From positions 10,207 through 74,206 of IMG/VR virus record IMGVR_UViG_2877251553_000001: a stretch of DNA of 64,000 nt. One strand, written 5' to 3'. The stretch is from a virus (lineage: Duplodnaviria > Heunggongvirae > Uroviricota > Caudoviricetes). Below, piece after piece: positions 17,247-60,267 of this stretch. Within the stretch, counting starts at the first letter, position 1. Each line of letters begins with the position of its first letter. The notes under the pieces were generated by a model, which was not told the origin of the DNA, ran no database searches, and was given only the letters and a program-made list of their open reading frames with translations. A program made the translations under genes and the position numbers.

Positions 17247-17266
17247 CAGGACGATACTCATCATTT

Positions 17267-17306: not shown

Positions 17307-17693
17307 ATGTTTCTGAAACAGGGCACGTTTAATTATGAAAAGCAGTCCGTGGTGCTCAGTGAGCTGTCCGGGCTGCAGAGAATTGAATATCTGGCGTTTG
17401 TTCAGCAGCGAACGGCAAAGTTTGATGCCGAAGAGGGAGAACTGCCGGAGGCTGAACGACAGATTGCTTTTCTGCGGATGGGGATGGATATCAATGCCTG
17501 GCTGGTTTCCCGCTCACTGTGGAATGCGGATCAGTCTAAGGATGTAGAGACGCTTTGCGCATCCGTTATTACAACATGGTCGTATGATGCCCTGGGTGCG
17601 GGGGCGGAGATGGTTCTGTCGCTGAGCGGTATGGGGACCATTGATAATGCCGGGGATGATGAGCATGAGGCGCTGACGCCGGAAAAGTCCTGA
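17307..17693 (+). CDS. G: Tail assembly chaperone G
   Basis: MFLK start and LSELSxLQRIE motif as in lambda gpG. Confidence 0.75.
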   Translation: MFLKQGTFNYEKQSVVLSELSGLQRIEYLAFVQQRTAKFDAEEGELPEAERQIAFLRMGMDINAWLVSRSLWNADQSKDVETLCASVITTWSYDALGAGAEMVLSLSGMGTIDNAGDDEHEALTPEKS

Positions 17694-18031
17694 CGCGGGA
17701 AATGCAGTTTGTCATGCGGCTTGCCCGGGAGTTCCGGCGGGCAGACTGGCGGCGGATGCTGTCGGAAATGTCGGCCACTGAGCTTGGTGAGTGGGGCGAT
17801 TATTTCCGGATGCAGAGCTTCAGTGATGTGTGGATGGATGCGCAGTTTGCCTCGCTGAAGGCATTGATCGTGAGAATGGTGTCCGGCAGTAGTGATGCTG
17901 CGGTGGCTGATTTCAGCCTTTTACCGGAAGAGAACGGGATACCGGAGCGAACGGACGAAGAACTGATGCATCTTGGGGAAGGTATTTCCGGAGGTGTGCG
18001 TTATGGACCAGATAGCCAACCTGGTCATTGA
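17307..18031 (+). CDS. T: Tail assembly chaperone G-T, product of -1 frameshift near 17681
   Basis: T frame is -1 relative to G and opens after stop at 17666-17668; lambda G/T paradigm; slip site as read is non-canonical. Confidence 0.45.
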
Positions 18032-21000
18032 TTTGGGGATTGATGCGGCAGAGTTTAAAAATGAAATCCCCCGTATCAAAAACCTTCTGAATGGTGCAGC
18101 CAGCGATGCAGAACGATCTTCTGCCCGTATGCAGCGTTTTATGGAGCGTCAGACTCAGGCCGCCCGGCAGACAACGCAGGCGGCTTCTTCGGCTGCAACA
18201 GCCGCATCCGTCCATGCGCAGACGGTGGAGAAGAACGCACAGGCTCATGAACGCATGGCCCGCGAGGTGGAGAAAACCCGCCAGCGCATGGAGGCGCTGA
18301 GCCAGAAAATGCGCGAGGAACAGGCGCAGGCCATGGCTCTGGCGGAGGCTCAGGATAAAACAGCTGCTGCGTTTTATCGTCAGATTGACAGTGTGAAACA
18401 GGCCAGTGCGGGGCTGCAGGAATTACAGCGTATTCAGCAGCAGATCCGACAGGCCAGAAACAGTGGCGGGATTGGTCAGCAGGATTATCTGGCGCTGATT
18501 TCTGAGGTTACGGCGAAAACCCGTGTTCTTACGCAGGCTGAGGAAGAGTCTACCCGACAGAAAGTGGCGTTTATCCGTCAGCTTAAAGAGCAGGCAACCC
18601 GCCAGAATCTTTCTTCTTCTGAGTTGCTTCGTGCCAGGGCTGCCCAGCTGGGGGTAAGCAGTGCTGCAGAAGTGTATATCCGCAAAATGGAGCAGGCAGG
18701 AAAAGCCACGCATTCGCTGGGTCTGAAAAGTGCAGCAGCCCGCCAGGAGATAGGCGTTCTGATAGGTGAACTGGCCCGTGGCAATTTAGGAGCGCTGAGG
18801 GGATCCGGGATAACGCTGGCTAACCGTGCCGGATGGATAGACACACTGATGTCACCGAAAGGCATGATGCTGGGCGGGGTTATTGGCGGTATTGCCGCGG
18901 CCGTCTATGGTCTGGGTAAAGCCTGGTATGACGGTCAGAAGGAGGGGGAAGAATTTAACCGCCAGCTGTCACTGACGGGGCATTATGCCGGAGTCACTGC
19001 CGGGCAGCTGTGGACGCTCAGTCGTGCTATTTCCGGGAATGGTATCACGCAACATGCTGCAGCCGGTGCGCTGGCTCAGGTGGTGGGGAGTGGTGCATTT
19101 CGTGGAAACGATATCGGTATGGTGGCGAGAGCTGCCGCACAGATGGAGCGATCGGTTGGCCAGTCGGTCAGCGATACCATAAATCAGTTTAAGCGGCTGA
19201 AGGATGATCCTGTAAATGCCGCGAAGGCTCTGGACAATGAGCTGCATTTTCTTACTGCCACTCAGCTTGAGCAGATACGCGTCCTTGGGGATCAGGGGCG
19301 GTCCAGTGATGCTGCACGGATAGCCATGTCTGCACTGGCAGAGGAAACCGGTCGGCGTACTGCGGATATTGATAATAACCTCAATGCGCTGGGCAGTACG
19401 CTGAAGTATCTGTCTGATTTATGGAATCGTTTCTGGGATGCGGCCATGAATATTGGTCGTGAAGACTCGCTGGATGAACAGATTGCCGCTTTACAGGAGA
19501 AAGTGTCGCGGGCGAAAAGACTCCCCTGGACGGCATCATCTTCTCAGGTTGAATACGATCAGCAGCGTCTTAACGATCTTCAGGAGAAAAAACGCCAGAA
19601 GGATTTGCAGGATGCAAAAGAGCAGGCAGAGCGGAATTATCAGGAGCAACAGAAACGCCGTAATGCTGAAAATGCTGCACTGAACCGGATGAATGAAACG
19701 GAAGCTGCACGACATCAGCGTGAAATTGCGCGTATTAATGCCATGCAGTACGCCGATCAGGCTGTCAGGGATGCGGCGATACAACGTGAAAATGAACGTT
19801 ACGAGAAAGCCCTGGCATCCGGTAAGAAAAAAACACGCGAAACCCGTAATGATGAGGCCACCCGGTTATTGCTGCAGTACAGTCAGCAACAGGCACAGGT
19901 GGAAGGACAGATTGCTGCTGCCAGACAGTCAGCAGGCATTGCCACGGAAAGGATGACAGAAGCGCATAAACAGCTTCTGGCTCTGCAGCAGCGCATCAGC
20001 GACCTGGACGGGAAAAAACTGACGGCAGATGAAAAGAGTGTGCTGGCCCGTAAAGATGAACTGATTCAGGCACTGACGCTGCTGGATGTAAAACAGCAGG
20101 AGCTTCAGAAACAGACGGCACTCAACGAGCTGAAGAAAAAAACAATTCAGCTGACCAGTCAACTGGCTGAAGAAGAGCGCGCTCAGCGTCAGCAACATGA
20201 CCTGGATATCGCCACGGTGGGTATGGGTGATCAGCAGCGACAGCGATATCAGGTACAACTGAGTCTTCGCCAGAAATACCAGCAACAGCTGGAGCAGTTG
20301 AGGCGGGATAGTGAGCAGAAAGGGACATATAACACGGATGACTACAGAAAGGCCGAGCAGGCGCTGACGGAGAGCCTGAACCGACAACTGAATGAGAATC
20401 GCCGTTACTGGCAACAGCTTGAAGTTGTGCAGGGTAACTGGAAAAACGGAGTCCTGCGTGCATTTCAGGATTTTACCGTGGATGCAGATAATACGGCAGA
20501 AACAGCAGAACAGGTGTTCTCGTCAGCCTTCAGCAACATGGGAAATGGCCTGGCAACTTTTGTCACTACCGGCAAACTCAATTTCAAATCCTTCACCTCT
20601 TCTGTGCTGTCAGATATGGCGAAAATCCTGGCGCAGGCAACCATGATGAAATCGATAAAAGGGATTGGCAGTGTACTGGGATTTGATCTCAGCAGCCTTT
20701 CCCTGAATGCCAATGGGGGGATTTATCAGTCTGCTGATTTGAGTCGTTACAGTGGCACGGTGGTTAACCGTCCGACGTTTTTTGCTTTTGCAAAAGGCGC
20801 GGGTGTGATGGGGGAAGCGGGACCTGAAGCCATTCTGCCATTGCGTCGTGGTGCTGACGGTAAGCTGGGGGTTGTGGCGGATATTGGGGGTTCAGGTATG
20901 GCGATGTTTTCCCCGCAGTACAACATCGAGATCAATAACGATGGCACGAACGGGCAGATAGGTCCGGCTGCCCTGAAGGCGGTTTATGACCTCGGGAAAA

Positions 21001-21068
21001 AAGCGGCAGCGGACTTTATGCAACAGCAGGCCCGTGATGGTGGTCGGTTAAGTGGAGCATATCGGTAA
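18003..21068 (+). CDS. H: Tail tape measure protein H
   Basis: 1021 aa, coiled-coil rich; C-terminus NNDGTNGQIGPAALKAVYD matches lambda gpH. Confidence 0.85.
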   Translation: MDQIANLVIDLGIDAAEFKNEIPRIKNLLNGAASDAERSSARMQRFMERQTQAARQTTQAASSAATAASVHAQTVEKNAQAHERMAREVEKTRQRMEALSQKMREEQAQAMALAEAQDKTAAAFYRQIDSVKQASAGLQELQRIQQQIRQARNSGGIGQQDYLALISEVTAKTRVLTQAEEESTRQKVAFIRQLKEQATRQNLSSSELLRARAAQLGVSSAAEVYIRKMEQAGKATHSLGLKSAAARQEIGVLIGELARGNLGALRGSGITLANRAGWIDTLMSPKGMMLGGVIGGIAAAVYGLGKAWYDGQKEGEEFNRQLSLTGHYAGVTAGQLWTLSRAISGNGITQHAAAGALAQVVGSGAFRGNDIGMVARAAAQMERSVGQSVSDTINQFKRLKDDPVNAAKALDNELHFLTATQLEQIRVLGDQGRSSDAARIAMSALAEETGRRTADIDNNLNALGSTLKYLSDLWNRFWDAAMNIGREDSLDEQIAALQEKVSRAKRLPWTASSSQVEYDQQRLNDLQEKKRQKDLQDAKEQAERNYQEQQKRRNAENAALNRMNETEAARHQREIARINAMQYADQAVRDAAIQRENERYEKALASGKKKTRETRNDEATRLLLQYSQQQAQVEGQIAAARQSAGIATERMTEAHKQLLALQQRISDLDGKKLTADEKSVLARKDELIQALTLLDVKQQELQKQTALNELKKKTIQLTSQLAEEERAQRQQHDLDIATVGMGDQQRQRYQVQLSLRQKYQQQLEQLRRDSEQKGTYNTDDYRKAEQALTESLNRQLNENRRYWQQLEVVQGNWKNGVLRAFQDFTVDADNTAETAEQVFSSAFSNMGNGLATFVTTGKLNFKSFTSSVLSDMAKILAQATMMKSIKGIGSVLGFDLSSLSLNANGGIYQSADLSRYSGTVVNRPTFFAFAKGAGVMGEAGPEAILPLRRGADGKLGVVADIGGSGMAMFSPQYNIEINNDGTNGQIGPAALKAVYDLGKKAAADFMQQQARDGGRLSGAYR

Positions 21069-21397
21069 TGGAGACGTTTCACTGGAAAGTGCGCCCGGAT
21101 ATGAATGTGGTATCAGAGCCGAAAGTGGTGACAGTGAAGCTGGGCGATGGTTATGAACAGCGTCGTGCGGCGGGACTGAATAACCAGTTGTCGACTTACA
21201 GCGTGACGATACGTGTTCGTAAATGTGAACACCCATCTTTAAAAGCCTTTCTGGAACGGCACGGTGGCGTCCGTGCATTTCAGTGGACGCCACCTTATGA
21301 CTGGAAACCGATCAGGGTGGTTTGTCGTAAATGGTCGGCAAGCGTGGGGGCGCTGTGGGTAACCATAACGGCAGATTTTGAACAGGTCGTGGCATAG
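21068..21397 (+). CDS. M: Minor tail protein M
   Basis: 109 aa, lambda gpM size and position. Confidence 0.8.
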   Translation: METFHWKVRPDMNVVSEPKVVTVKLGDGYEQRRAAGLNNQLSTYSVTIRVRKCEHPSLKAFLERHGGVRAFQWTPPYDWKPIRVVCRKWSASVGALWVTITADFEQVVA

Positions 21398-21406
21398 GAG
21401 GCTCTG

Positions 21407-22105
21407 ATGCAGGATATTCCACAGGAAACACATCATGAGACGACACGCCTCACTCAGTCAGCCCAGGTGGTGCTCTGGGAAATCGATCTGACAGAGGTCG
21501 GTGGTGAACGTTATTTTTTCTGTAATGAGCAGAACGAAAAAGGTGAGCCGGTTACCTGGCAGGGGCGGCAGTATCAGGCATACCCCATTCAGGGGACAGG
21601 ATTTGAACTGAACGGCAAGGGCAGTGCTGCCCGTCCGACACTGACGGTTTCTAACCTGCACGGTATGGTCACCGGGATGGCGGAAGATCTGCAGAGTCTG
21701 GTCGGCGGAACGGTGGTCCGGCGTAAGGTTTACGCCCGTTTTCTGGATGCGGTGAACTTCGTCAACGGAAACAGTGACGCCGACCCGGAGCAGGAGGTGA
21801 TCAGCCGCTGGCGCATCGAGCAGTGCAGCGAACTGAGCGCGGTCAGTGCCTCTTTTGTACTGGCCACGCCGACGGAAACGGACGGCGCTGTTTTTCCGGG
21901 ACGTATCATGCTGGCCAACACCTGCACCTGGACCTATCGCGGCGATGAGTGCGGTTATCACGGTCCGGCGGTCGCGGATGAATATGACCAGCCAACGTCC
22001 GATATCACGAAGGATAAATGCAGCAAATGCCTGAGCGGTTGTAAGTTCCGCAATAACGTCGGCAACTTTGGCGGCTTCCTTTCCATTAACAAACTTTCGC
22101 AGTAA
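21407..22105 (+). CDS. L: Minor tail protein L
   Basis: 232 aa, lambda gpL size; C-terminal Cys cluster. Confidence 0.8.
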   Translation: MQDIPQETHHETTRLTQSAQVVLWEIDLTEVGGERYFFCNEQNEKGEPVTWQGRQYQAYPIQGTGFELNGKGSAARPTLTVSNLHGMVTGMAEDLQSLVGGTVVRRKVYARFLDAVNFVNGNSDADPEQEVISRWRIEQCSELSAVSASFVLATPTETDGAVFPGRIMLANTCTWTYRGDECGYHGPAVADEYDQPTSDITKDKCSKCLSGCKFRNNVGNFGGFLSINKLSQ

Positions 22106-22110
22106 ATCCC

Positions 22111-22854
22111 ATGACAGAAACAGAATCAGCGATTCTGGCGCACGCCCGGCGATGTGCGCCAGCGGAGTCGTGCGGCTTCGTGGTGAGAACGCCGGAGGGA
22201 GAAAGATATTTTCCCTGCGTGAATATCTCCGGTGAGCCGGAGGAGTATTTCCGGATGTCGCCGGAGGACTGGCTGCGGGCAGAAATGCAGGGTGAGATTG
22301 TGGCGCTGGTCCACAGCCACCCCGGTGGTCTGCCCTGGCTGAGTGAGGCTGACCGGCGGCTGCAGGTGCAGAGTGATTTGCCGTGGTGGCTGGTCTGCCG
22401 GGGTGAGATTCATAAATTCCGCTGTGTGCCGCATCTCACCGGGCGGCGCTTTGAGCACGGGGTGACGGACTGTTACACGCTGTTCCGGGATGCTTACCAT
22501 CTGGCGGGGATTGAGATGCCGGATTTTCATCGCGGGGATGACTGGTGGCGTAACGGTCAGAATCTCTATCTGGATAATCTGGAGGCCACAGGGCTGTATC
22601 AGGTGCCGTTGTCAGCGGCGCAGCCGGGCGATGTGCTGCTGTGCTGTTTTGGTTCATCGGTGCCGAATCATGCCGCTATTTACTGCGGCGACGGCGAGCT
22701 GCTGCACCATATTCCTGAACAACTGAGCAAACGAGAGAGGTATACCGACAAATGGCAGCGACGCACACACTCCCTCTGGCGTCACCGGGCATGGCACGCA
22801 TCTGCCTTTACGGGGATTTGCAACGATTTGGCCGCCGCATCGACCTTCGTGTGA
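22111..22854 (+). CDS. K: Tail assembly protein K (peptidase-like)
   Basis: Lambda gpK-like sequence including HSHPGG motif. Confidence 0.8.
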   Translation: MTETESAILAHARRCAPAESCGFVVRTPEGERYFPCVNISGEPEEYFRMSPEDWLRAEMQGEIVALVHSHPGGLPWLSEADRRLQVQSDLPWWLVCRGEIHKFRCVPHLTGRRFEHGVTDCYTLFRDAYHLAGIEMPDFHRGDDWWRNGQNLYLDNLEATGLYQVPLSAAQPGDVLLCCFGSSVPNHAAIYCGDGELLHHIPEQLSKRERYTDKWQRRTHSLWRHRAWHASAFTGICNDLAAASTFV

Positions 22855-23399
22855 AAACGGGGGCCGAAGCCATCCGGGCGCTGGCCACACAGCTCCCGGC
22901 GTTTCGTCAGAAACTGAATGACGGCTGGTATCAGGTGCGCATTGCCGGGCGTGATGCAGGTGAAACCGAATTATCTGCCCGTCTTAATGAGCCGCTGGCA
23001 AATGGTGCCGTGATCCATATCGTGCCGCGTCTGGCGGGAGCTAAAAGTGGCGGTGTGTTTCAGGTGGTGCTGGGGGCGGCGTTGATTGCGGTGGCATGGT
23101 GGAACCCTGTGGGCTGGCTGGGTGCCGCGGCTGTATCGGGCATGTATGCGGCAGGGGCCAGTATGATCCTGGGCGGTGTGGCGCAGATGCTGGCACCGAA
23201 AGCCAGGACGTCCACGGCAGCCAGTACAGATAACGGCAAACAGAACACCTATTTTTCCTCACTGGATAACATGGTTGCTCAGGGCAATGTTTTGCCTGTT
23301 CTGTACGGTGAAATGCGTGTGGGGTCGCGGGTGGTTTCTCAGGAGATCAGCACGGCAGACGAAGGGGACGGTGGTCAGGTTGTGGTGATTGGTCGCTGA
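22752..23399 (+). CDS. I: Tail assembly protein I; start uncertain, overlaps K
   Basis: C-terminus matches lambda gpI (TDNGKQNTYFSSLDNMVAQGNVLPVLYGE). Confidence 0.7.
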   Translation: MAATHTLPLASPGMARICLYGDLQRFGRRIDLRVKTGAEAIRALATQLPAFRQKLNDGWYQVRIAGRDAGETELSARLNEPLANGAVIHIVPRLAGAKSGGVFQVVLGAALIAVAWWNPVGWLGAAAVSGMYAAGASMILGGVAQMLAPKARTSTAASTDNGKQNTYFSSLDNMVAQGNVLPVLYGEMRVGSRVVSQEISTADEGDGGQVVVIGR

Positions 23400-23459
23400 T
23401 GCAAAATGTTTTATGTGAAACCGCCTCCGGGCGGTTTTGTCGTTTATGGAGCATGACGA

Positions 23460-26857
<3,398 letters not shown>

Positions 26858-26923
26858 ATTTTATAACCCAGAACGGGCGCCAGAAATGACGCCTTTTTTA
26901 TTGCAGAAAAGCGAGAGGTAATT

Positions 26924-27519
26924 ATGCGTAAAGTTTGTGCAGCAATTTTGTCCGCAGCCATTTGTCTGGCCGTATCCGGTGCGCCTGCATGGGCGTCTGA
27001 ACATCAGTCCACGCTGAGCGCGGGTATCTTCATGCCTCGACGAACGTCCCCGGCAGTGATGATCTGAACGGGATTAACATGAAATACCGTTATGAGTTTA
27101 CGGACACACTGGGGCTGGTGACGTCATTCAGCTATGCAGGAGACAAGAATCGCCAGCTGACCCGTTACAGCGATACCCGCTGGCATGAAGATTCCGTTCG
27201 TAACCGCTGGTTCAGCGTAATGGCGGGCCGTCTGTGCGCGTGAATGAATGGTTCAGCGCGTATGCGATGGCGGGTGTAGCTTACAGCCGTGTGTCGACTT
27301 TCTCCGGGGATTATCTTCGCGTAACTGACAACAAGGGGAAAAAGCACGATGTGCTGACCGGAAGTGATGACGGTCGCCACAGCAACACGTCTCTGGCGTG
27401 GGGGCTGGCGTGCAGTTTAACCCGACCGAATCCGTGTCCATTGATATTGCTTATGAAGGCTCCGGCAGTGGTGACTGGCGCACTGACGGTTTCATCGTGG
27501 GTGTCGGTTATAAATTCTG
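26924..27519 (+). pseudogene. lom: lom-like outer membrane protein gene, multiple frame disruptions
   Basis: Lambda Lom-like translation recoverable only by switching frames at three G/C runs. Confidence 0.7.
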
Positions 27520-27584
27520 ATTAGCCAGGTAACACAGTGTTATGACAGCCCGCCGGTTCAGGCGGGCTTTTTTGTGGGTGAATA

Positions 27585-29959
27585 TGGCAGTAAAGATTTC
27601 AGGTGTACTGAAAGACGGCACAGGAAAACCGGTACAGAACTGCACAATCCAGCTGAAAGCAAAACGTAACAGCACCACGGTGGTGGTGAACACGCTGGCC
27701 TCAGAAAATCCGGATGAAGCCGGGCGTTACAGCATGGACGTTGAGTACGGGCAGTACAGCGTTATTCTGTTGGTGGAGGGATTCCCGCCGTCACATGCCG
27801 GGACCATCACCGTGTATGAAGATTCCCGACCCGGTACGCTGAATGATTTTCTCGGTGCCATGACGGAGGATGATGCCCGTCCTGAGGCACTGCGCCGTTT
27901 TGAACTGATGGTGGAAGAGGTGGCGCGTAACGCGTCCGCGGTGGCACAGAACACGGCAGCCGCGAAGAAGTCAGCCAGTGATGCCAGCACATCAGCCCGT
28001 GAGGCGGCAACCCATGCGACTGATGCTGCAGGCTCAGCACGCGCAGCCAGCACATCAGCCGGGCAGGCCGCGACGTCGGCTCAGTCAGCGTCTTCCAGCG
28101 CAGGAACGGCATCAACAAAGGCCACTGAAGCCTCAAAAAGTGCTGCCGCTGCAGAGTCCTCAAAAAGCGCGGCAGCTACCAGTGCCGGTGCGGCGAAAAC
28201 GTCAGAAACGAATGCGGCAGCGTCACAAAAATCTGCAGCCACTTCTGCATCCGCAGCGACCACAAAGGCGTCAGAAGCTGCCACCTCAGCCCGGGATGCG
28301 GCGGCCTCAAAAGAGGCAGCGAAATCATCAGAAACGAACGCATCATCAAGCGCCAGTAGTGCCGCTTCCTCGGCAACGGCGGCAGGAAATTCCGCGAAGG
28401 CGGCAAAAACGTCCGAGACGAACGCCAGGTCTTCTGAAACGGCAGCGGGACAGAGTGCCTCAGCTGCGGCAGGCTCAAAAACAGCGGCTGCATCATCTGC
28501 CAGTGCCGCATCAACAAGTGCCGGGCAGGCCTCAGCCAGTGCCACCGCTGCCGGAAAGTCGGCAGAAAGTGCCGCATCGTCTGCTTCAACAGCCACAACG
28601 AAGGCTGGCGAAGCCACTGAACAGGCCAGCGCAGCAGCGAGGTCAGCTTCCGCAGCGAAGACATCCGAAACGAACGCGAAAGCGTCGGAAACCCGTGCAG
28701 AATCCTCAAAAACGGCTGCCGCATCGTCAGCCAGTTCGGCGGCGTCATCGGCATCATCGGCGTCTGCTTCAAAAGATGAGGCGACCAGACAGGCGTCAGC
28801 AGCGAAGGGCAGCGCCACGACAGCATCCACGAAGGCGACAGAGGCAGCTGGCAGTGCGACGGCGGCAGCACAGAGCAAAAGTACGGCGGAATCCGCGGCA
28901 ACGCGCGCTGAGACAGCGGCAAAACGTGCAGAGGATATTGCATCCGCCGTGGCGCTTGAGGATGCGAGCACGACGAAAAAGGGGGTAGTACAGCTCAGCA
29001 GTGCGACCAACAGCACGTCTGAAACGCTGGCGGCAACGCCAAAGGCAGTAAAAGCAGCCTATGACAATGCAGAGAAACGTCTGCAGAAAGACCAGAACGG
29101 TGCTGATATTCCCGACAAGGACCGCTTCCTGAGTAACATTAATGTTTACAGCAAAGGTGAAGTGGATCAGAAAAAGGGGATGCGATACGTTGTGGTAAAT
29201 GCCCCGGCGGGTGTCCAGGAAGGTAAATATTATCCGTTAGTGATAAAAAGGAATGACAGCCATCGAGCATCCCGCGTTGTCATTTCAACGCCAAGGCGCA
29301 CAGCTAATCACAGAATGAATAACTGTGAGTTTAATGGTTTTGTTTGCACAGGCGGCTGGACGGACCGGGGTAGCTATGCCTGTGGTATGTTCTGGGCTTA
29401 TTCATCATCGGAACGCGCTATTCATTCCATTCTGATGAGTAATAAAGGCGATACCGTAGACAGCGTATTCTATATAGAAGGTGGGGCATTTCCCGTAGAG
29501 GTTTTTTTAGAAGAAGGACTCTCCGTTACTGCACCTGCTTCTGATTATGTTGTTGCTGAAACAACTTATAAATTTGGTGCAACTGATCCTTATTCTGAAT
29601 CAGTTGCTGTAAATTTAATTTTAGATTTTAAACAAGGTAATGGATTTTATAGTTCGTATCCTGTTTTGAGTAAGTCAGATATTAGCGGGAATAAGATTTA
29701 CGCTAATGATGAAGTTATTGTCCGTAGTCAGAACGCGTTAAGGATGATTGCAGGCGATTACGGTGTCATATGGCGAAATGATGGAGCAAATACTTACTTG
29801 CTCATGACTGATAAAGGCGACCAGTACGGTGGCTGGAACGGTCTTCGACCATTTGCTGTAAATAACGCAACAGGTGAAGTGACGATCAATACACCACTTA
29901 ATTCGCCTAAGGGATTAAGGGAAATTCTGATACAGCTACGAAACTTCAGACAGCAATAA
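27585..29959 (+). CDS. stf: Side tail fibre protein Stf with divergent AT-rich C-terminal domain
   Basis: N-terminus MAVKISGVLKDGTGKPVQNCTIQLKA and Ala/Ser-rich shaft match lambda Stf; last ~280 aa differ and are AT-rich. Confidence 0.75.
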
Positions 29960-38436: not shown

Positions 38437-38482
38437 ATTCGTAATGCGAAGGTCGTAGGTTCGACTCCTATTATCGGCACCA
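38437..38482 (+). other. tRNA-Thr (CGU, thrW-like) 3' fragment, probable attachment-site core
   Basis: 46 nt from anticodon loop through CCA match thrW as recalled; no 5' half or acceptor partner upstream. Confidence 0.6.
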
Positions 38483-38647: not shown

Positions 38648-39862
38648 GTGAAACTCAATGCCCGTCAAATAGACACAGCCAAGCCAAAAGAGAAGGCTTA
38701 CAAGCTGGCCGATGGTGGCGGTTTGTATCTCTTGGTAAAACCTAATGGAGGTAAATACTGGCGACTTAAATATCGTGTAGCTGGTAAAGAGAAGCTATTG
38801 GCACTAGGTGTGTATCCTGAGGTTACTCTAGCCGATGCTCGGGCAAAACGTGAAGATGCGAAAAGAGGTATCGCTGGTGGTATCGATCCGATGGAAGCGA
38901 AACGAGAGGAAAAGATTGCCCGGGAAACGCAGTTAAACAACACCTTCAAAGATATTGCCCTTGAGTGGCACAGCAGCAAATTAAAAAAATGGTCTGCTGG
39001 TTATGCTTCAGACATCCTCGAAGCCTTCAACAAAGATGTGTTCCCTTACATTGGCAAAAAACCAATCGCCGAAATCAAACCACTTGAACTTCTGAATGTG
39101 CTGCGGCGCATCGAGGGGCGCGGTGCTACAGAAAAAGCCAAAAAAGTGAGGCAGCGGTGCGGGGAAGTTTTCCGCTATGCAATAGTCACTGGTCGCGCAG
39201 AGTATAACCCTGCACCAGACCTTACTAGCGCGATGCAAGGCCATGAATCTAATCATTACCCTTTCCTTACAGCTAAAGAATTACCTGATTTTTTCAAGGC
39301 ATTGTCCAGTTACTCAGGAAGCGCATTGGTTGTTATGGCGGCTCGTCTACTGATTATCATCGGCTTGCGGACTGGCGAACTACGTGGCGCATTATGGGAT
39401 GAAATTGATTTCAACAAGGCTATCTGGGAGATACCCGCTTCACGTATGAAAATGCGGCGGCCTCATATTGTGCCATTGTCTGATCAGGCTCTTTCGCTTA
39501 TTGGGAAGATTAGAGAAATAACAGGCAATTACCCTCTTATGTTTCCCGGGCGCAATGATCCAAGGAAAACAATGAGTGAGGCCAGCATAAACCAAGTGTT
39601 TAAGCGCATTGGCTACGCTGGACGTGTAACTGGTCATGGGTTCCGGCACACTATGAGCACGATTTTGCATGAGCAGGGCTATAACACCGCGTGGATAGAA
39701 ACGCAGCTCGCTCACGTTGATAAGAACTCAATTCGTGGCACATACAACCATGCGCAATATCTGGATGGAAGGCGGGAGATGCTTCAATGGTATGCCGACT
39801 ATATGGATGCGCTGGAGAAGGAGGAGAACGTTGTTCATGGTTCGTTTGGGAAACGAGCTTAA
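38648..39862 (+). CDS. Tyrosine integrase, P4-like
   Basis: 404 aa with C-terminal HGFRHT, LAH and RGxY catalytic motifs; adjacent to tRNA fragment. Confidence 0.85.
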   Translation: MKLNARQIDTAKPKEKAYKLADGGGLYLLVKPNGGKYWRLKYRVAGKEKLLALGVYPEVTLADARAKREDAKRGIAGGIDPMEAKREEKIARETQLNNTFKDIALEWHSSKLKKWSAGYASDILEAFNKDVFPYIGKKPIAEIKPLELLNVLRRIEGRGATEKAKKVRQRCGEVFRYAIVTGRAEYNPAPDLTSAMQGHESNHYPFLTAKELPDFFKALSSYSGSALVVMAARLLIIIGLRTGELRGALWDEIDFNKAIWEIPASRMKMRRPHIVPLSDQALSLIGKIREITGNYPLMFPGRNDPRKTMSEASINQVFKRIGYAGRVTGHGFRHTMSTILHEQGYNTAWIETQLAHVDKNSIRGTYNHAQYLDGRREMLQWYADYMDALEKEENVVHGSFGKRA

Positions 39863-45561: not shown

Positions 45562-45714
45562 TAGTTGAAAAGGTGGGCACCTACGTTACCAATACAGGCT
45601 TAATGGCTACATACGGCGGTCAGTTTACGCTTACACTCATATTGAAGTGGCACACTGAATTTGGCCACCTGAACAGAGGTGATATGCTCACCTCAGAACA
45701 ACACAGGTGCTCCA

Positions 45715-46958
<1,244 letters not shown>

Positions 46959-49668: not shown

Positions 49669-49788
49669 TTTCAGTCTCCGTTAAGCGGCGTTAAACGCGT
49701 CCGGGTAGAGTTTCAGAATGTCGGCAATTTCCTGCTGAGAAAGTCCGTTGTGATCATTTATGTTCGCAAGATGGTTAATATGAAGTGG

Positions 49789-51059
<1,271 letters not shown>

Positions 51060-51962: not shown

Positions 51963-52270
<308 letters not shown>

Positions 52271-52342
52271 TGGAGCACCTGTGTTGTTCTGAGGTGAGCA
52301 TATCACCTCTGTTCAGGTGGCCAAATTCAGTGTGCCACTTCA

Positions 52343-52858: not shown

Positions 52859-52929
52859 TAAAAAAAGAACAAATGGTAGTGTCCGCTATTGCCAGTACAC
52901 CTCACCGGGTGGCATGGATAAACCCGGAA

Positions 52930-53376
52930 GAGAGTAAATCAAACCGCGCAATTGGCGTTGCGCTGAATGATACTGCATGTCGCGTATTGAAAAAACAAAT
53001 CGGGAATCATCACCGTTGGGTATTTGTGTATAAGGAAAGCTGTACCAAACCAGACGGAACGAAAGCGCCAACAGTCAGGAAGATGCGGTATGACGCAAAC
53101 ACAGCCTGGAAAGCGGCGCTGAGACGAGCAGGTATTGATGATTTCAGATTTCACGACTTGAGACACACCTGGGCAAGTTGGCTGGTTCAAGCCGGAGTCC
53201 CGTTATCAGTGTTACAGGAAATGGGAGGCTGGGAGTCTATCGAAATGGTTCGTCGATATGCTCACCTCGCACCTAATCACCTTACCGAACACGCACGGCA
53301 AATAGACTCGATTCTGAACCCATCGGTCCCAAATTTGTCCCAGTCAAGAAATAAGGAACGTACTAATGATGTGTAA
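52930..53376 (+). pseudogene. Tyrosine integrase C-terminal fragment (phage Int / Xer type)
   Basis: Catalytic HDLRHT and RYAHL motifs present; no N-terminal domain; start approximate. Confidence 0.6.
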
Positions 53377-53463
53377 CTTATTGATTTAAATGGATAATAG
53401 GAACAATACACATAGGCGATAAGCTTTGTTTTTGTTGCCTTTTTTATTGTTCATTTTTTATAG

Positions 53464-53603: not shown

Positions 53604-53963
53604 ATGAGAATGACCAGTCGCAAAAAAGAGATACTTAGCTACTTTGAACCGGATAACCTCGAATGGGTGACTGGTGAGATTGGTGCGCCGCCGTTCGATG
53701 TGTCGGGTGTGGCCTACCTGCTTCATGGCATGGTGTCGTTCGATAAGCGTCACCAGCTCGAATCAACCCGGCGCACACTGGAAAGCATGGTTGCTGGTGG
53801 ACTGCTTGAGCGGGTGACAGTGTATGAATCGCGCCAGATACGGCGCGGCGGTGATACTAACGCAACGGTCGTGCGCTACGGTTTACCCGGTCAGTGCGCT
53901 GTTATGCGCGATACTGGCGGCGCTGACAACGCAATATCAGGTGAATACATGCGGGTCAGTTAA
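53604..53963 (+). CDS. Hypothetical prophage protein
   Basis: 119-aa ORF, no family assigned. Confidence 0.4.
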   Translation: MRMTSRKKEILSYFEPDNLEWVTGEIGAPPFDVSGVAYLLHGMVSFDKRHQLESTRRTLESMVAGGLLERVTVYESRQIRRGGDTNATVVRYGLPGQCAVMRDTGGADNAISGEYMRVS

Positions 53964-54498
53964 TAGCCTGCAATCTGTCGTTGATGCGGCTCAGGTCGTA
54001 AACCCGGCGTTCAATATCCAGCATCAGGAAATTGTGGATCTCGGCCTGCTCAGGATTATCAGACTCTCTGGCCTGTAATAGCAATTCATTGTAACCATGC
54101 AAGCCGCCTGAGTTTTCCGCCGGGGTGGTGCCTTTCCCACGCAGGCAGCTAATGGGCTGATTACTCGTATCGTGTGTTTGCTTCTCCAGCACAATGACGC
54201 AATCCCACCAGTCGCCAAAGTCATACGTGTAAACCAGCTTGTCACCCTCATTCTGGAGCGCCGCCCATAGTGGCGTGATTGCCGCGTTACCCATGCTTTC
54301 ATCCTCACCCCATACGCGATACTCGCTACCTGGATCACCTTTACGCCCTTTCTCGAACATATACAGGTGTTCGTCATTCCAGCCAAAAGCTAACTGGATC
54401 ACGGCATGAAGTTTACTAAAGGGGATTTGCTCTGGAACCAGCACACGCCGCCATATAGGTGGTTTGCTGTCTCGGATGGTTATCTTTAGCTGGTACAT
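53956..54498 (-). CDS. pRiA4b ORF-3-like family protein
   Basis: N-terminus MYQLKITIRDSKPPIWRRVLVP resembles this family's signature. Confidence 0.5.
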   Translation of the reverse strand: MYQLKITIRDSKPPIWRRVLVPEQIPFSKLHAVIQLAFGWNDEHLYMFEKGRKGDPGSEYRVWGEDESMGNAAITPLWAALQNEGDKLVYTYDFGDWWDCVIVLEKQTHDTSNQPISCLRGKGTTPAENSGGLHGYNELLLQARESDNPEQAEIHNFLMLDIERRVYDLSRINDRLQAIN

Positions 54499-54618
54499 GC
54501 AAATCCTGAATAAATGCGAATCGGAAGGATAACGATACTGACGTACTCACAATTCTGTAAAGGTGAATAAAGGAAATTTGCTTAATACGCATAAGGTACA
54601 TGTGGAATAATCCCATAT

Positions 54619-54804
54619 CTACCTGCGCGGCGCTGGCTTCTTCCACTGGTAGGCAGGTGCTCGCATCATTTCGCGGAACCTGTCGCGCCGGGCTATATCG
54701 GCATTAACTGATCGTTCTATCTCCCGTTGATCTGCCTGTGTAAGCTGGTGGCCTCCGTGCTCAAGTTTGGCGATGGTCAATAAGGCTATTTCGCGTGGTG
54801 TCAT
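54619..54804 (-). CDS. Small hypothetical protein
   Basis: 61-aa ORF. Confidence 0.3.
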   Translation of the reverse strand: MTPREIALLTIAKLEHGGHQLTQADQREIERSVNADIARRDRFREMMRAPAYQWKKPAPRR

Positions 54805-55101
54805 ACGTCATACCCTCTGGAAGGATGAAACACGCCCGGATTAAATTTCATTTTTCGCGGGTATAAAAAAACGATGGGGCGGGCAGTCCCGGATAGTCAG
54901 GGCTGTAGAGATTTGACTACCCCCTCCCCACTGGATTCAGGTTACTGCTATTCCGTTAAGCGCTGCTTACGGGGATAGCTGCGTTGTGATTTTGACCATT
55001 CAGGTCGCCGCTATTTCCTCACCGATTGGGTGCTACGCGCGCGCGTACTTGTCCCGAAATACCAGAAACCGCCAGCCAGAGGATGATTTCCCTCTGGTGG
55101 T

Positions 55102-55383
55102 CTACCTTTGCCTCTTGCCGCCATTTAACCGGAAGGCGTTACCGTTCGGTTGCGCTATCCCCATGCGGTGTTGCGTTTCGGTAACAGCTTTATGCAGGTC
55201 GCCAAATTCCTCAACCTTCACGGGCGGGCGCTTCACGTTCTCCAGACACGTTTCACGGCGGCGCTTTATCCATTCCCGATCATCGTCCTCGGTGCATAAC
55301 AGCATGACTTCCATCCATCGTGCGGCAGCTCTCCGGTATAGCCCTTTTGACTCCAGCTCTTCAGCTTTCCTGTCCCTTATCAT
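55102..55383 (-). CDS. PerC-family transcriptional activator-like protein
   Basis: 93 aa with AEELESKGLYRRAAARW motif. Confidence 0.55.
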   Translation of the reverse strand: MIRDRKAEELESKGLYRRAAARWMEVMLLCTEDDDREWIKRRRETCLENVKRPPVKVEEFGDLHKAVTETQHRMGIAQPNGNAFRLNGGKRQR

Positions 55384-55420
55384 TTCTGCCTCTCAGATTA
55401 TATAGATAAGCAAAAAGGTG

Positions 55421-55540
55421 TTGGTTCAGTTGGTTCAGTTGGTTCAATTTGTAAAGATCGTTGTTTTTATTATGTTTTTCTAAAATATTGAACCAACATC
55501 AACTCATTTTGAACCAACACAGCCCAGCTCTGAACCAACA
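55421..55540. promoter_or_regulatory. Iteron-like repeat array in a divergent intergenic region
   Basis: Three tandem TTGGTTCA(G/A) units at 55421-55447, AT-rich spacer, then three TGAACCAACA units at 55489-55540 spaced 21 bp apart. Confidence 0.55.
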
Positions 55541-55641
55541 ACACAGCGATAGCTTTGTGATTGGTCCGTTATTTTCTGGCTGATATTTGAGCGTATAACA
55601 GTGTTATACAGTGGTATACTGTATGGATATTACTCACTGAT

Positions 55642-56097
55642 ATGGTCTTTGCAATGAGCAAATCTAATCTGATCGCGTTCCGCATCCCATCTGAATTGCA
55701 GGATGAGTTTAATCGGTCTGTTCTCGCTTCTGGAGGGGATAAAACCTCCTGGCTTGTTGATGCGATTCGCATGAAGCTGGGACAGCCGGAAAAGTCTATT
55801 GATTCACGAATGCTTGGGCTGGTGGAGCGCATGGAAAAAGCCGCTGCGTCGCTTATTGCCGGAAAGCCGAACATCCCACCAAAGCCATATAACGAAACGG
55901 CAGTTATAAAGATCATTGCCGATACCATCCAACAGGGATTTGATAATGGGCGTGTGATAGCTGAACGGATCAATGAAGCAGGCTATCAAACAAAAGCTGG
56001 TAAAGCGTGGGATAAAGATATTTACAGCGCGTGGAAGCGTCAGGGAAGCAATGCTGAAAATTTAAAAGCGGTGATTGATTGTAAGGTCAGCGTATAA
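55642..56097 (+). CDS. Hypothetical regulatory / DNA-binding protein
   Basis: 151-aa ORF immediately downstream of the repeat array. Confidence 0.4.
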   Translation: MVFAMSKSNLIAFRIPSELQDEFNRSVLASGGDKTSWLVDAIRMKLGQPEKSIDSRMLGLVERMEKAAASLIAGKPNIPPKPYNETAVIKIIADTIQQGFDNGRVIAERINEAGYQTKAGKAWDKDIYSAWKRQGSNAENLKAVIDCKVSV

Positions 56098-56188
56098 ACA
56101 TGAGTGCCCATTGGAAAGTAAGCGTACAGCCTGAACCGTCTGGTCAGAATCTGACGAATTAGACAAAGTGGTGTCCACCAAATAAGTA

Positions 56189-56590
56189 GTGGGAACCAAA
56201 GTGTCAGATATGCAGAAAAATGTGAATCCCGGCAGGCGAAAAGGCTGCCCTAATTATCCTCCCGAATTTAAACAGCAGCTCGTTGCTGCCTCCTGTGAAC
56301 CCGGGATATCCATCTCAAAACTTGCTCTTGAAAATGGCATTAACGCCAATCTGTTGTTCAAATGGCGACAACAATGGCGCGAGGGAAAGCTGCTATTACC
56401 TTCTTCAGAGAGCCCCCAGCTACTTCCTGTGACTCTCGATGCAGCTGCCGAACAGCCAGAATCGCTCGCAGAGGATCCGGAAACCCTCAGTATCAGCTGT
56501 GAGGTAACGTTCCGGCACGGGACGCTCCGCTTCAATGGCAATGTCAGCGAAAAGCTCCTGACTCTGCTGATACAGGAACTGAAGCGATGA
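56189..56590 (+). CDS. IS66-family accessory protein TnpA
   Basis: First ORF of IS66 unit. Confidence 0.65.
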   Translation: MGTKVSDMQKNVNPGRRKGCPNYPPEFKQQLVAASCEPGISISKLALENGINANLLFKWRQQWREGKLLLPSSESPQLLPVTLDAAAEQPESLAEDPETLSISCEVTFRHGTLRFNGNVSEKLLTLLIQELKR

Positions 56591-56934
56591 TCCCGTTACC
56601 TTCCGGGACCAAAATTTGGCTGGTTGCCGGTATCACCGATATGAGAAATGGCTTCAACGGCCTGGCGGCAAAGGTGCAGACGACGCTGAAAGACGATCCG
56701 ATGTCAGGTCACGTTTTTATCTTCCGTGGGCGTAATGGCAGTCAGGTAAAGCTCCTCTGGTCTACCGGCGATGGACTGTGTCTGCTGACCAAACGGCTGG
56801 AGCGCGGCCGCTTCGCCTGGCCGTCAGCCCGGGATGGCAAAGTGTTCCTCACACCGGCACAGCTGGCGATGCTCCTTGAAGGTATCGACTGGCGGCAGCC
56901 TAAAAGACTGCTTACGTCCCTGACTATGTTGTAA
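56587..56934 (+). CDS. IS66-family accessory protein TnpB
   Basis: 115 aa with LPSGTKIWLVAGITDMR pattern. Confidence 0.75.
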   Translation: MIPLPSGTKIWLVAGITDMRNGFNGLAAKVQTTLKDDPMSGHVFIFRGRNGSQVKLLWSTGDGLCLLTKRLERGRFAWPSARDGKVFLTPAQLAMLLEGIDWRQPKRLLTSLTML

Positions 56935-56982
56935 GCCTCTTTATCCTGGTCGACGCTGAATGAGCCTGGTAATATACCCGGT

Positions 56983-58520
56983 ATGAGCAGCTCACTTCCT
57001 GACGATATCAATGCACTGAAACGTCTCCTTGCCGAACAGGAGGCGCTGAACCGTGCCCTGCTGGAAAAGCTGAACGAGCGTGAACGCGAAATAGACCATC
57101 TGCAGGCACAGCTGGATAAGCTGCGCCGGATGAACTTCGGCAGCCGCTCCGAAAAAGTCTCCCGTCGTATCGCACAGATGGAAGCTGACCTGAAGGCACT
57201 TCAGAAAGAAAGTGATACCCTTACCGGTCGGGTTGACGACCCGGCCGTGCAGCGCCCGCTGCGTCAAACCCGCACCCGCAAACCGTTCCCCGAATCACTC
57301 CCCCGCGATGAAAAACGGCTGCTGCCGGCAGCGTCATGCTGCCCGGAATGTGGAGGCTCACTGAGCTATCCGGGTGAGGATGCCGCCGAACAGCTGGAGT
57401 TGATGCGCAGCGTCTTCCGGGTTATCCGGACTGTACGTGAAAAGCATGCCTGTACTCAGTGCGATGCCATCGTGCAGGCCCCGCGCCTTCACGGCCCATC
57501 GAGCGGGGTATCGCAGGACCGGGGCTGCTGGCCCGCGTGCTGATCTCAAAGTATGCAGAGCACACCCCGCTGTACCGCCAGTCTGAAATGTACGGCCGCC
57601 AGGGCGTGGAGCTGAGTCGTTCACTGCTGTCGGGCTGGGTGGATGCATGCTGCCGGCTACTGTCACCGCTGGAAGAAGCGCTTCAGGACTATGTGCTGAC
57701 TGACGGTAAGCTCCATGCTGATGACACGCCTGTCCCGGTGCTGTTACCAGGCAATAAGAAAACGAAGACCGGGCGGTTATGGACCTACGTTCGTGACGAC
57801 CGTAACGCCGGGTCAACGCTGGCGCCGGCGGTGTGGTTCGCTTACAGCCCGGACAGAAAAGGCATCCATCCGCAGACCCATCTTGCGGGGTTCAGTGGTG
57901 TACTGCAGGCGGATGCATACGCCGGGTTCAACGAGCTGTACCGGGATGGCCGGATAACGGAAGCCGCCTGTTGGGCTCACGCCCGCCGTAAAATCCACGA
58001 TGTGCACGTTCGCACCCCGTCAGCCCTGACGGAGGAAGCGCTGAAACGGATCGGCGAACTGTACGCCATCGAGGCAGAGATAAGGGGAATGACGGCGGAG
58101 CAGCGCCTTGCCGAACGTCAGTTGAAAACGAAACCGCTGCTGAAATCCCTGGAAAGCTGGCTGCGTGAAAAGATGAAAACCCTGTCGCGACACTCAGAAC
58201 TGGCGAAAGCGTTCGCATACGCCCTGAACCAGTGGCCGGCGCTGACGTACTATGCAGATGATGGCTGGGCTGAGGCGGACAATAACATCGCTGAAAATGC
58301 GTTGCGGATGGTCAGTCTGGGCCGCAAAAACTACCTGTTCTTCGGTTCGGATCATGGAGGAGAGCGGGGAGCGCTGCTGTACAGCCTGATCGGGACGTGC
58401 AAACTGAACGGAGTGGAGCCAGAAAGCTACCTCCGCTATGTACTTGACGTCATAGCCGACTGGCCGATAAACCGGGTCGGCGAACTGCTCCCCTGGCGCG
58501 TAGCACTGCCGACTGAATAA
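56983..58520 (+). CDS. IS66-family transposase TnpC; apparent frameshift near 57480
   Basis: Two overlapping ORFs together give IS66 transposase with zinc finger and DDE region. Confidence 0.7.
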
Positions 58521-58557
58521 CACATCCCCGTCAATACGGTTCTTGCTGCACGCTTAC

Positions 58558-59124
58558 AAAAAAGCGGGTTTTCACCCGTCAGAATCTGGCGGGGATCCGT
58601 CAGTAAAATCAAAACATGATCCGTCAGATAAAAAACCTTCTCGTCCGGACGCTTCGCAACCGGACACGCAGACGGCTGAACAGGATTTTTTAACTCGCCA
58701 TCCTGATGCGGTTGTATTCAGCCCTAAAAAGCGCCAGTGGGGGACGCAGGATGATTTGACCTGCGCACAGTGGCTCTGGAAAAAAATCATCGCCCTGTAC
58801 GAGCAGGCTGCCGAATGTGACGGCGAGGTGGTTCGTCCCAAAGAACCGAACTGGACAGCCTGGGCAAACGAAATTCGCCTGATGTGTGTACAGGATGGCC
58901 GTACTCACAAACAAATCTGCGAGATGTACAGCCGCGTCAGCCGCGATCCGTTCTGGTGCCGTAACGTGCTCAGCCCGTCGAAGTTGCGGGAAAAATGGGA
59001 TGAGCTTTCCCTGCGCTTATCGCCGTCCGTCAGCACGCACACAGAAAAACGTGAAGACCCGTACTTCAAAGCCAGTTACGACAACGTGGACTACAGCCAG
59101 ATCCCGGCAGGATTCAGGGGGTGA
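58558..59124 (+). pseudogene. Phage early/replication-region gene, 5' end removed by IS66
   Basis: Open frame begins at the IS66 boundary; function not assigned. Confidence 0.4.
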
Positions 59125-59402
59125 GCATGAGTCTTTTGAATGACGTTCAGAAATTCATTGAAGCCCATCCGGGGTGTACTTCCGGAGACATTGCGGATGC
59201 TTTTGCAGGTTACTCACGGCAGCGCGTTCTGCAGTCTGCAAGCAAGTTACGTCAGAGTGGGCGTGTGGCTCACCGTTGTGAAGGAGATACACGCAGACAT
59301 TTCCCGCGCCTGACTGAGAGAGCGCAGGAACCGGGACCACAATCAGTTCGAGAAACCAGACCTGTGCGCAATTTCTATGTCGGCACTAACGGTCCCGGGT
59401 GA
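59121..59402 (+). CDS. Hypothetical phage protein, possible winged-helix
   Basis: 93-aa ORF coupled to flanking genes. Confidence 0.4.
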   Translation: MSMSLLNDVQKFIEAHPGCTSGDIADAFAGYSRQRVLQSASKLRQSGRVAHRCEGDTRRHFPRLTERAQEPGPQSVRETRPVRNFYVGTNGPG

Positions 59403-59614
59403 TTTTGTGCCTGACCCGCCAGGCTGAAGAACTGGAGTCCAGGGGCTTATACCGTCGTGCTGCAACGGTGTGGATGGCGGCATTCCGTGAAAGCCACTCC
59501 CAGCCAGAACGAAACAATTTTCTGGCGCGTCGTGAGCGGTGCTTACGGAAAAGCAGCAAGCGCGCTGTATCGGGTGATGAGTGGTATCTGTCAGGGAATT
59601 ACGTGGGGGCTTAA
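59399..59614 (+). CDS. PerC-like small regulator
   Basis: 71 aa containing AEELESRGLYRRAA. Confidence 0.4.
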   Translation: MILCLTRQAEELESRGLYRRAATVWMAAFRESHSQPERNNFLARRERCLRKSSKRAVSGDEWYLSGNYVGA

Positions 59615-60267
59615 TGAGTAATAAATATTGCCAGGCGCTGGTGGAGTTGCGAAACAAACCAGCCCATGAACTGAAGGAAGTGGGCGATCAGTGGCGCACA
59701 CCGGACAACATTTTCTGGGGAATTAACACCCTGTTTGGCCCGTTTGTTCTGGATCTGTTTACTGACGGTGATAACGCCAAATGTGCCGCGTATTACACGG
59801 CGGAAGACAACGCGCTGGCGCATGACTGGTCAGAACGTCTTGCGGAGCTTAAAGGTGCTGCCTTTGGAAATCCTCCATACAGCCGCGCCAGTCAGCATGA
59901 GGGGCAATACATCACCGGCATGCGTTACATCATGAAACATGCCAGTGCCATGCGTGATAAGGGCGGGCGCTATGTTTTCCTGATCAAAGCTGCCACCAGC
60001 GAAGTGTGGTGGCCGGAAGATGCGGATCATATTGCTTTTATTCGCGGGCGTATTGGTTTTGAACTGCCTGCCTGGTTTATCCCGAAAGACGAGAAGCAGG
60101 TGCCAACCGGTGCTTTCTTCGCTGGTGCTATTGCCGTTTTCGACAAGACCTGGAAGGGACCGGCAATCAGCTACATCGGGCGCGATGAACTTGAGGCATG
60201 TGGTGAGGCCTTTCTGGCGCAAGTTCGCCAGCAGGCAGAAAAACTTGTCAGGGAGATGGCGGCATGA
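59614..60267 (+). CDS. Phage DNA N6-adenine methyltransferase (Dam-like)
   Basis: Full-length copy of the gene truncated at window start. Confidence 0.75.
   Translation: MSNKYCQALVELRNKPAHELKEVGDQWRTPDNIFWGINTLFGPFVLDLFTDGDNAKCAAYYTAEDNALAHDWSERLAELKGAAFGNPPYSRASQHEGQYITGMRYIMKHASAMRDKGGRYVFLIKAATSEVWWPEDADHIAFIRGRIGFELPAWFIPKDEKQVPTGAFFAGAIAVFDKTWKGPAISYIGRDELEACGEAFLAQVRQQAEKLVREMAA

Follow-up and report, generated by a model that had tools for sequence, protein, structure and literature searches.

PerC-family genes on mobile elements

Several PerC-family proteins encoded by mobile elements of Escherichia coli have been described, and the present analysis concerns two sequences of this family in a stretch of 64,000 nucleotides of IMG/VR record IMGVR_UViG_2877251553_000001 (positions 10,207–74,206). 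This stretch as a whole is referred to as the window, and coordinates given without a locus name are positions within it. The two sequences are the open reading frames (ORFs) ORF-A (55102–55383, minus strand, 93 aa, ATG start) and ORF-B (59399–59614, plus strand, 71 aa), the GTG start of which overlaps the TGA stop of the frame upstream (GTGA). Comparison with the described systems very probably places the interval as follows: two unrelated PerC-family sequences lie on two degraded mobile elements which have been joined by an element of the IS66 family of insertion sequences (IS), and ORF-B is a pseudogene fragment.

The prototype of the family is PerC of the enteropathogenic E. coli (EPEC) plasmid pMAR2, encoded downstream of perA and perB (L014:18487–18756). 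In E. coli O157, the group 1 proteins PchA, PchB and PchC alone activate ler, with no effect for PchD and a less than two-fold effect for PchE (PMC5931665), and PchE represses csgD (PMC6265319). PchA, a PerC homologue, relieves silencing by H-NS and StpA at LEE1 (PMC4764244). A gene of the family is also found on EcCIMP1, a phage-inducible chromosomal island (PICI) of the commensal E. coli MP1 (Pick, Stadel and Raivio, ISME J 2025; PMC11773190). Phage Kapi1 mobilises this island, which is integrated in tRNA-Thr (thrW) between proA and yagU, and the same paper reports PICIs as common carriers of PerC-family genes (PMC11773190). Over-expression of gene EcCIMP1_025 in Citrobacter rodentium silenced a LEE1-lux reporter in a dose-dependent manner, while EPEC perC activated LEE1 in the same test, and an ANR-like repressor was proposed by the authors (PMC11773190). 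Proteins of the ANR (AraC negative regulator) family, for example Aar, are smaller than 10 kDa with three conserved alpha-helices (PMC4983702) and bind AraC-family regulators and H-NS but not DNA (PMC4983702, PMC5570504). For YfdN, encoded by the CPS-53 prophage of E. coli K-12, no function was reported in the literature searched; it was mentioned only as a PerC homologue of K-12 which had been deleted in reporter strains.

PerC-family membership of ORF-A and ORF-B

By sequence comparison, both ORF-A and ORF-B are members of the PerC family, and the similarity extends well beyond the GLYRRAA motif by which a sequence-only reading of the window had linked them. The protein of ORF-A begins with MIRDRKAEELESKGLYRRAAARWM and that of ORF-B contains RQAEELESRGLYRRAATVWM. 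When the six-frame translation of the window was searched for G[LIVM][YF]RRA, these two proteins gave the only matches. Against the Pfam PerC model (PF06069, length 90, gathering score 22.6 bits) ORF-A scored 104.5 bits over model positions 1–85 and ORF-B 41.2 bits over positions 5–59, both above the gathering score. The two proteins share 43% identity with each other over 56 aa (E 1e-11). Alignment with EPEC PerC was not confined to the short motif, covering 75 aa of ORF-A (37% identity, E 7e-21) and 57 aa of ORF-B (32% identity, E 5e-8).

PerC (BfpW) of EPEC pMAR2 and PchA/B/C of enterohaemorrhagic E. coli O157 thus belong to the same Pfam family as ORF-A and ORF-B, and all of them are borne by mobile elements. 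About 75 residues can be aligned, a span that takes in the core AEELE-x-KGLYRRAA-x-W as well as the C-terminal helix; identity to these proteins is, however, just 31–37%, the value of 31% being that of ORF-A against an incomplete Pch sequence of an O157-derived record, which is assigned to group 1 by inference. Closer relatives of ORF-A from E. coli, Klebsiella, Enterobacter, Citrobacter, Salmonella and Pantoea could be aligned with it from end to end. Residues E8, L10, E11, G14, Y16, R17, R18, A19, A20, W23 and C46 were invariant in this alignment, and a second conserved block reads FGDLxxA...TQxRMGI.

The two frames exist as had been proposed, but only one of them is a complete small protein. 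ORF-A is intact and is read from the minus strand, since 55102–55383 translated on the plus strand is riddled with stops, and with 93 aa it fits the stand-alone size of the family (approximately 90–104 aa; homologues of 87–103 aa). ORF-B is a piece of a frameshifted gene, namely one domain of a gene encoding 162–164 aa, and so is not a stand-alone PerC-sized protein. A sequence search of the PDB with ORF-A gave no significant match, and PADLOC returned no defence-system match for ORF-A, ORF-B and their neighbours. A plasmid match (H81) which was checked as a candidate canonical perC locus proved not to be one.

ORF-A is the PerC-family gene of an EcCIMP1-type island

The gene of which ORF-A is an exact copy has already been described and, in part, characterised. 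It is identical to L019:9535–9816 of E. coli MP1 in all 282 nucleotides and all 93 amino acids, and this MP1 gene is the only PerC-family gene annotated inside the published boundaries of EcCIMP1. Because it is the sole gene of the family annotated there and is identical to ORF-A, the MP1 twin is taken to be EcCIMP1_025. The gene is named "PerC family transcriptional regulator" (WP_000617443.1) by the Prokaryotic Genome Annotation Pipeline (PGAP), and an index of the public assembly collection lists the identical protein in 14,408 blocks. The 2.8 kb surrounding ORF-A gave partial matches in 2,089 of 5,426 complete E. coli genomes, with coverage of at least 80% in 116.

Gene order around ORF-A was constant in all eight public contexts shown: a variable upstream gene (AlpA-like or a 151-aa ORF), the PerC-family gene, a 61-aa ORF, PRiA4_ORF3 and a 119-aa ORF. 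The 61-aa ORF had not been called in three of the eight, though it is present at the same position. In these contexts the module forms the far end of an island with a Toprim/DUF927 primase and P22 gp7-, gp20- and gp16-like ejection proteins, and the island integrase was seen in the P15-25 and MP1 loci. In the window, ORF-A is surrounded by the same distal cargo module on mixed strands (53604–56097), comprising the 119-aa hypothetical protein (53604–53963, plus strand), PRiA4_ORF3 (53956–54498, minus strand), the 61-aa hypothetical protein (54619–54804, minus strand) and a 151-aa hypothetical protein (55642–56097, plus strand). The module shows 99.1% identity to L001 11919–14822 and 98.7% to MP1 locus 7826–9974. 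The window and EcCIMP1 share the downstream neighbours (61-aa ORF, PRiA4_ORF3 and 119-aa ORF), the attachment (att) core and an iteron module upstream of the gene. They differ in that the window holds a scrambled remnant, in which ORF-A has as its upstream neighbour the 151-aa variant of other strains.

The distal end of the EcCIMP1-type island is marked by the att core GATAATAGGA at 53393–53402. Its partner, TCCTATTATC at 38466–38475, is inverted relative to the copy at 53393 and is adjoined by the island integrase (38648–39862); TCCTATTATC is the att core defined for EcCIMP1 (PMC11773190). The parts of the island retained in the window correspond to MP1 locus 7826–9974, which is the ORF-A module, and 22550–27827, each in pieces. 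The intervening MP1 locus 9975–22549 (12.5 kb, with the alpA-like helix-turn-helix gene, the ejection-protein genes, the primase and a primase-proximal iteron module) had no match in the window, and the island is cut by ISEc22 at 56118. The window thus does not hold a complete PICI with direct att repeats, integrase, alpA, primase and cargo. A tRNA scan of the window found no intact thrW or other tRNA-Thr, the att cores alone remaining. ORF-A is accordingly a gene that has stayed intact in a PICI remnant scrambled by IS elements and not a gene of a lambdoid prophage, and it would be better annotated as the EcCIMP1 PerC-family gene.

ORF-B is part of a probable yfdN pseudogene

ORF-B belongs to a broken copy of yfdN; about half of E. 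coli genomes have this gene. The stretch 58557–63646 is collinear with the nin (early-right) region of Shigella phage SfII and E. coli phage SKA5, with 95.6–97.0% identity. The equivalent of 59121–59614 is a single gene of 486–489 bp in SfII, SKA5, SfV and Ayreon, and the intact phage gene is annotated as "YfdN", "transcriptional activator" or "PerC transcriptional activator family protein". In E. coli the gene is called "yfdN: PerC family transcriptional regulator" by PGAP; coverage of the region was at least 80% in 2,547 of 5,426 E. coli genomes.

Alignments to SfII, SKA5, SfV and Ayreon revealed a 1-bp deletion in the window copy (GGTCC-CGGG, 59395–59396, plus strand). This deletion, at approximately 59395, splits yfdN into an N-terminal fragment (59121–59402, plus strand), which encodes a predicted winged helix and linker and ends at a premature TGA, and the out-of-frame C-terminal PerC core at 59399–59614, which is ORF-B. 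All 40 E. coli matches among those listed span 542 bp, against 541 bp in the window. ORF-B itself matches phrog_1324 at positions 98–166 of 172. In the whole collection, the frameshifted N-terminal fragment in its GTG-started form (93 aa) was found on a single contig, CP026825.1 (GCA_002949915.1, 4.70 Mb), on which ORF-B is not called as a gene. The window evidently derives from this contig. The exact ORF-B product and the ATG-started N-terminal fragment returned no record in the exact-product look-ups of the collection.

The ORF-B region shows 96–98.5% DNA identity to the genes for YfdN of K-12 prophage CPS-53 and for orf40 and SfII_42 of SfV and SfII, respectively. As with these known YfdN-type genes, it is positioned between an O-like replication gene and dam with the other nin genes. 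The known genes, however, consist of one frame of 162–164 aa (winged helix, linker and PerC core), whereas no such intact single frame is present in the window, where the copy is split and the O gene upstream is truncated by an IS. No Shine-Dalgarno-like sequence precedes the GTG of ORF-B. Expression of ORF-B is considered doubtful because it is a frameshifted fragment, because O is truncated by ISEc22 and because there is no cI/cro region upstream in the window. ORF-B is thus most likely a pseudogene fragment rather than a regulator, and would be better annotated as part of a yfdN pseudogene.

ISEc22 joins the two elements

The two elements meet at ISEc22 (IS66 family, 56118–58557, plus strand), which joins the island remnant to the prophage remnant. 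The 8-mers flanking it, ATTGGAAA and AAAAAAGC, differ, so that there is no 8-bp target-site duplication, and the joint is therefore regarded as recombinant. The transposase of ISEc22 is itself frameshifted at 57478 (C5 to C4). The placement of both ORFs in one prophage by the sequence-only reading could consequently not be maintained, with ORF-A in the EcCIMP1-type island remnant, ORF-B in the SfII-like prophage remnant and ISEc22 between them. The region is better described as a mosaic in which an IS links the remains of an island to those of a prophage than as one prophage.

An IS66-mediated inversion which would have moved the SfII early region (cI, cro and the 5' portion of O) to a position left of the integrase fragment was also considered; it was rejected, as blastn found no SfII immunity region in the window. 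It should also be noted that on CP026825.1 (1864936–1885217, L015) the prophage remnant is followed on its right by an IS1 fragment and then by the gcl-allR-allA-allS region. In K-12 this region lies far from thrW, and a large rearrangement or deletion is therefore implied.

Predicted fold and possible mode of action

An AlphaFold2 model of ORF-A contains helices at residues 5–13, 16–29 and 33–49 with a predicted local distance difference test score (pLDDT) of about 90, followed by a fourth helix (61–73) which is modelled less confidently but is conserved. For yfdN, the model of an intact homologue, P0106, served as the basis of the architecture given above (predicted winged helix, linker and PerC core). 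It shows a disordered linker at residues 65–86 and a three-helix PerC core at 92–151, with pLDDT values of 88–93 up to approximately residue 140, and places the yfdN deletion at the boundary between linker and PerC core. In these models the PerC core is predicted to be a TPR/MIT-like three-helix module with no helix-turn-helix, which favours action via protein contacts as in the ANR family.

A relation to the ANR proteins is also suggested by the NCBIfam ANR model (NF033650, curated cut-off 32 bits), against which ORF-A scored 31.1 bits (E 1.6e-7) and ORF-B 26.5 bits (E 4.2e-6). Both scores are under the cut-off, and the E-values still suggest a related fold or homology for the two ORFs. The members of the ANR family (Aar, Rnr and Cnr) are, like ORF-A, small helical proteins with three predicted helices, and a repressive phenotype has also been reported for EcCIMP1_025. 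ORF-A differs from them in being longer (93 aa) and in possessing the conserved fourth helix at 61–73. No AraC-family gene was found beside ORF-A among the flanking genes checked in the window and in the eight public contexts.

The sequence-only reading had suggested that prophage-borne PerC homologues of this kind could activate chromosomal virulence regulators. In that form the suggestion is not supported: EcCIMP1_025 silenced LEE1, PchD has no effect on ler and ORF-B is a fragment. PerC and PchA/B/C activate LEE1 by relieving H-NS silencing, whereas the PerC-family gene of EcCIMP1 repressed LEE1 in one published test; this repression, opposite to the suggested activation, is the sole experimental evidence on the EcCIMP1 gene. 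The more general suggestion of a link between a mobile element and host gene control has support in the literature for the protein of ORF-A, from heterologous over-expression only.

ORF-A would probably act in an ANR-like way, by contacts with nucleoid silencers of the H-NS family, with AraC-type activators or with both, and would not be a classical DNA-binding activator. Its expression would start from the AT-rich region occupied by the iteron module described below. The PerC core would on this model be a protein-contact module, the sign of its effect varying from member to member, and in YfdN the fused winged helix would supply the contact with DNA. The PerC/ANR relation and the TPR-like core support the view that many "PerC family activators" of mobile elements are protein-contact modulators whose sign varies by member.

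Alternative explanations

Three other explanations of the locus were weighed against a known island gene beside a broken yfdN. That both ORFs are functional small PerC-type activators of one prophage, which switch on host (virulence) regulators, ler for example, by countering H-NS silencing, is given very little chance. Both ORFs do pass the Pfam PerC model, and PerC and PchABC are known to activate LEE1 by relieving H-NS/StpA silencing (PMC4764244, PMC5931665). Against this, the EcCIMP1 counterpart identical to ORF-A repressed LEE1 in the published assay, PchD and PchE hardly affect ler, and ORF-A is only 31% identical to the O157 Pch fragment of inferred group 1. In addition, ORF-B is a piece of a frameshifted gene in a remnant whose O gene is truncated, and the two ORFs are on different elements. 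A functional split yfdN gene, in which termination and reinitiation at GTGA would yield the winged-helix fragment and the 71-aa PerC core as separate proteins, the core acting as an ANR/PerC-type modulator, is also judged improbable, although the missing base lies precisely where the disordered linker gives way to the PerC core and its loss leaves both sub-ORFs open with overlapping stop and start. PHROGs families exist for the core alone (phrog_2608, 83 aa, 155 bits) and for the N-terminal domain alone (phrog_23071), but some of these stand-alone families may derive from frameshifted alleles, and such variants are visible. The GTG lacks a preceding Shine-Dalgarno-like sequence, the upstream O gene is IS-truncated with no phage early region upstream in the window, and neighbouring genes of the remnant are decaying too. 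Moreover, the split allele was seen on the single contig on which ORF-B is not called, and SfII, SKA5, SfV, Ayreon and the E. coli prophages examined all carry the fused gene.

The frameshift in yfdN could also be an assembly artefact, that is, a homopolymer miscall in a strain with an intact two-domain yfdN, and this is considered unlikely. The change is a single-base difference in a CCC/GGG context (C4 to C3 compared with SfV and Ayreon), and every 1-bp difference from relatives at 56–63 kb is a deletion, several of them in G/C runs. However, a twin copy of the nin region in the window reads through the contexts of three such deletions and retains an intact frame of 339 aa, which makes systematic miscalling unlikely, and real decay of the remnant is the simpler reading. 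Even with an intact yfdN, the O gene upstream would still be truncated by the IS.

Several observations nevertheless weigh against the account of the locus preferred here. For ORF-B as a pseudogene fragment, these are that its frame stays open with the GTGA overlap of stop and start, that the stand-alone PerC-core family phrog_2608 (matched with 155 bits) leaves room for residual translation of a functional core, and that an assembly error could account for the yfdN deletion, which lies in a C/G run. For the reading of ORF-A, they are the ANR match under the NCBI cut-off together with the lack of an AraC-family gene among the checked flanks, and a simple sigma-70 scan which found no promoter upstream of ORF-A. 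Pch proteins have also been reported on DNA in chromatin immunoprecipitation, with no co-precipitation with H-NS (PMC4764244), which means that protein contacts as the sole mode of action are not established for the PerC family. A terminator scan around ORF-A found nothing.

Iteron-like module upstream of ORF-A

Directly upstream of ORF-A lies an iteron-like module (55420–55539), the nearest repeat of which is 37 nt from the ATG. It consists of three tandem copies of GTTGGTTCA (55420–55446) and three inverted copies at a spacing of 21 bp (55489–55539), separated by a 42-bp AT-rich spacer with a GATC site. The six exact copies in the module are the only ones in the window, elsewhere in which none was found (0.56 expected). 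The 258-bp region upstream of ORF-A as a whole is AT-rich, with 37% GC. A near-identical twin module was found in MP1 and in four further intact islands, 26 bp past the primase stop and 7.5–8.5 kb away (L019 18393–18513, L004 252–362, L006 1713–1823, L007 1042–1152 and L009 344–454); the window has just the module proximal to ORF-A.

In origins of Staphylococcus aureus pathogenicity islands and of PICIs, an AT-rich spacer lies between iterons beside the initiator gene, and in the ori/crr system of P4 a second copy lies at a distance. By analogy, the paired modules may be ori/crr-like, and they are a candidate origin of EcCIMP1-type islands. The perC-like gene might even be wired to replication, with a P4 ori/crr-like pair at which binding of the primase/initiator would gate an ANR-like silencer on induction of the island, and the free yfdN PerC core might, as a further possibility, still act; only a small likelihood is attached to this. 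The phrase "origin of replication" is absent from the EcCIMP1 paper (PMC11773190).

Decay of the SfII-like prophage remnant

Decay of the prophage remnant is visible on both sides of yfdN. The O-like replication initiator gene upstream is represented by its 3' part (58558–59124, plus strand), the 5' end having been removed by ISEc22. It matches phrog_391 at positions 119–298 of 298, so that approximately the first 118 codons are gone, and homology to the 942-bp O gene of SfII begins at base 375 of that gene. The cI/cro/cII region of SfII was absent from the whole window by blastn, and the normal early promoter region of the operon is therefore missing upstream. The rest of the nin-region remnant (59614–62790, plus strand) contains dam, a LexA-like gene, rusA, KilA-N and a DUF968 gene. 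The last of these (ydfU-like, 61794–62737) has three 1-bp deletions, at 61815, 62131 and 62622, while its twin copy in the window (1646–2662) is an intact frame of 339 aa. Since the twin copy reads the same contexts intact, real decay is a likelier cause of the deletions than systematic assembly error.

The twin belongs to a second SfII-like nin region (1–3005), which begins inside dam at the edge of the window; a yfdN copy of this region would fall just outside. This second region is without the LexA-like gene, dam being joined directly to rusA (SfII locus 8710 to 9030). In the SfV record (L016 1007–1033), a dam promoter with −35 and −10 signals is annotated inside the PerC-core part of the yfdN-like orf40. 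The counterpart in the window, at approximately 59520–59550, may therefore still drive dam despite the broken yfdN.

Other features of the island remnant

Between the two att cores, pieces of IS911 were found at 45642–46893, 49780–50682 and 51990–52342, together with a 3' fragment of an SfII-type integrase (52905–53402), and the thrW hotspot is strongly rearranged by IS elements. Between the stop of ORF-A and the 61-aa ORF there is a (CG)n run (55036–55041) which is 2 bp longer than in the E. coli islands L001 and L006, the two used for comparison. Outside the window, EcCIMP1-type islands (L004–L011 and L019) encode homologues of the P22 ejection proteins (gp7, gp20 and gp16-like), some with an SLT domain. 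A DUF2824 protein is also encoded downstream of the primase in these islands, and ejection-type cargo is unusual for a satellite. The ejection-protein homologues have been mentioned as candidate packaging or transfer genes (PMC11773190).

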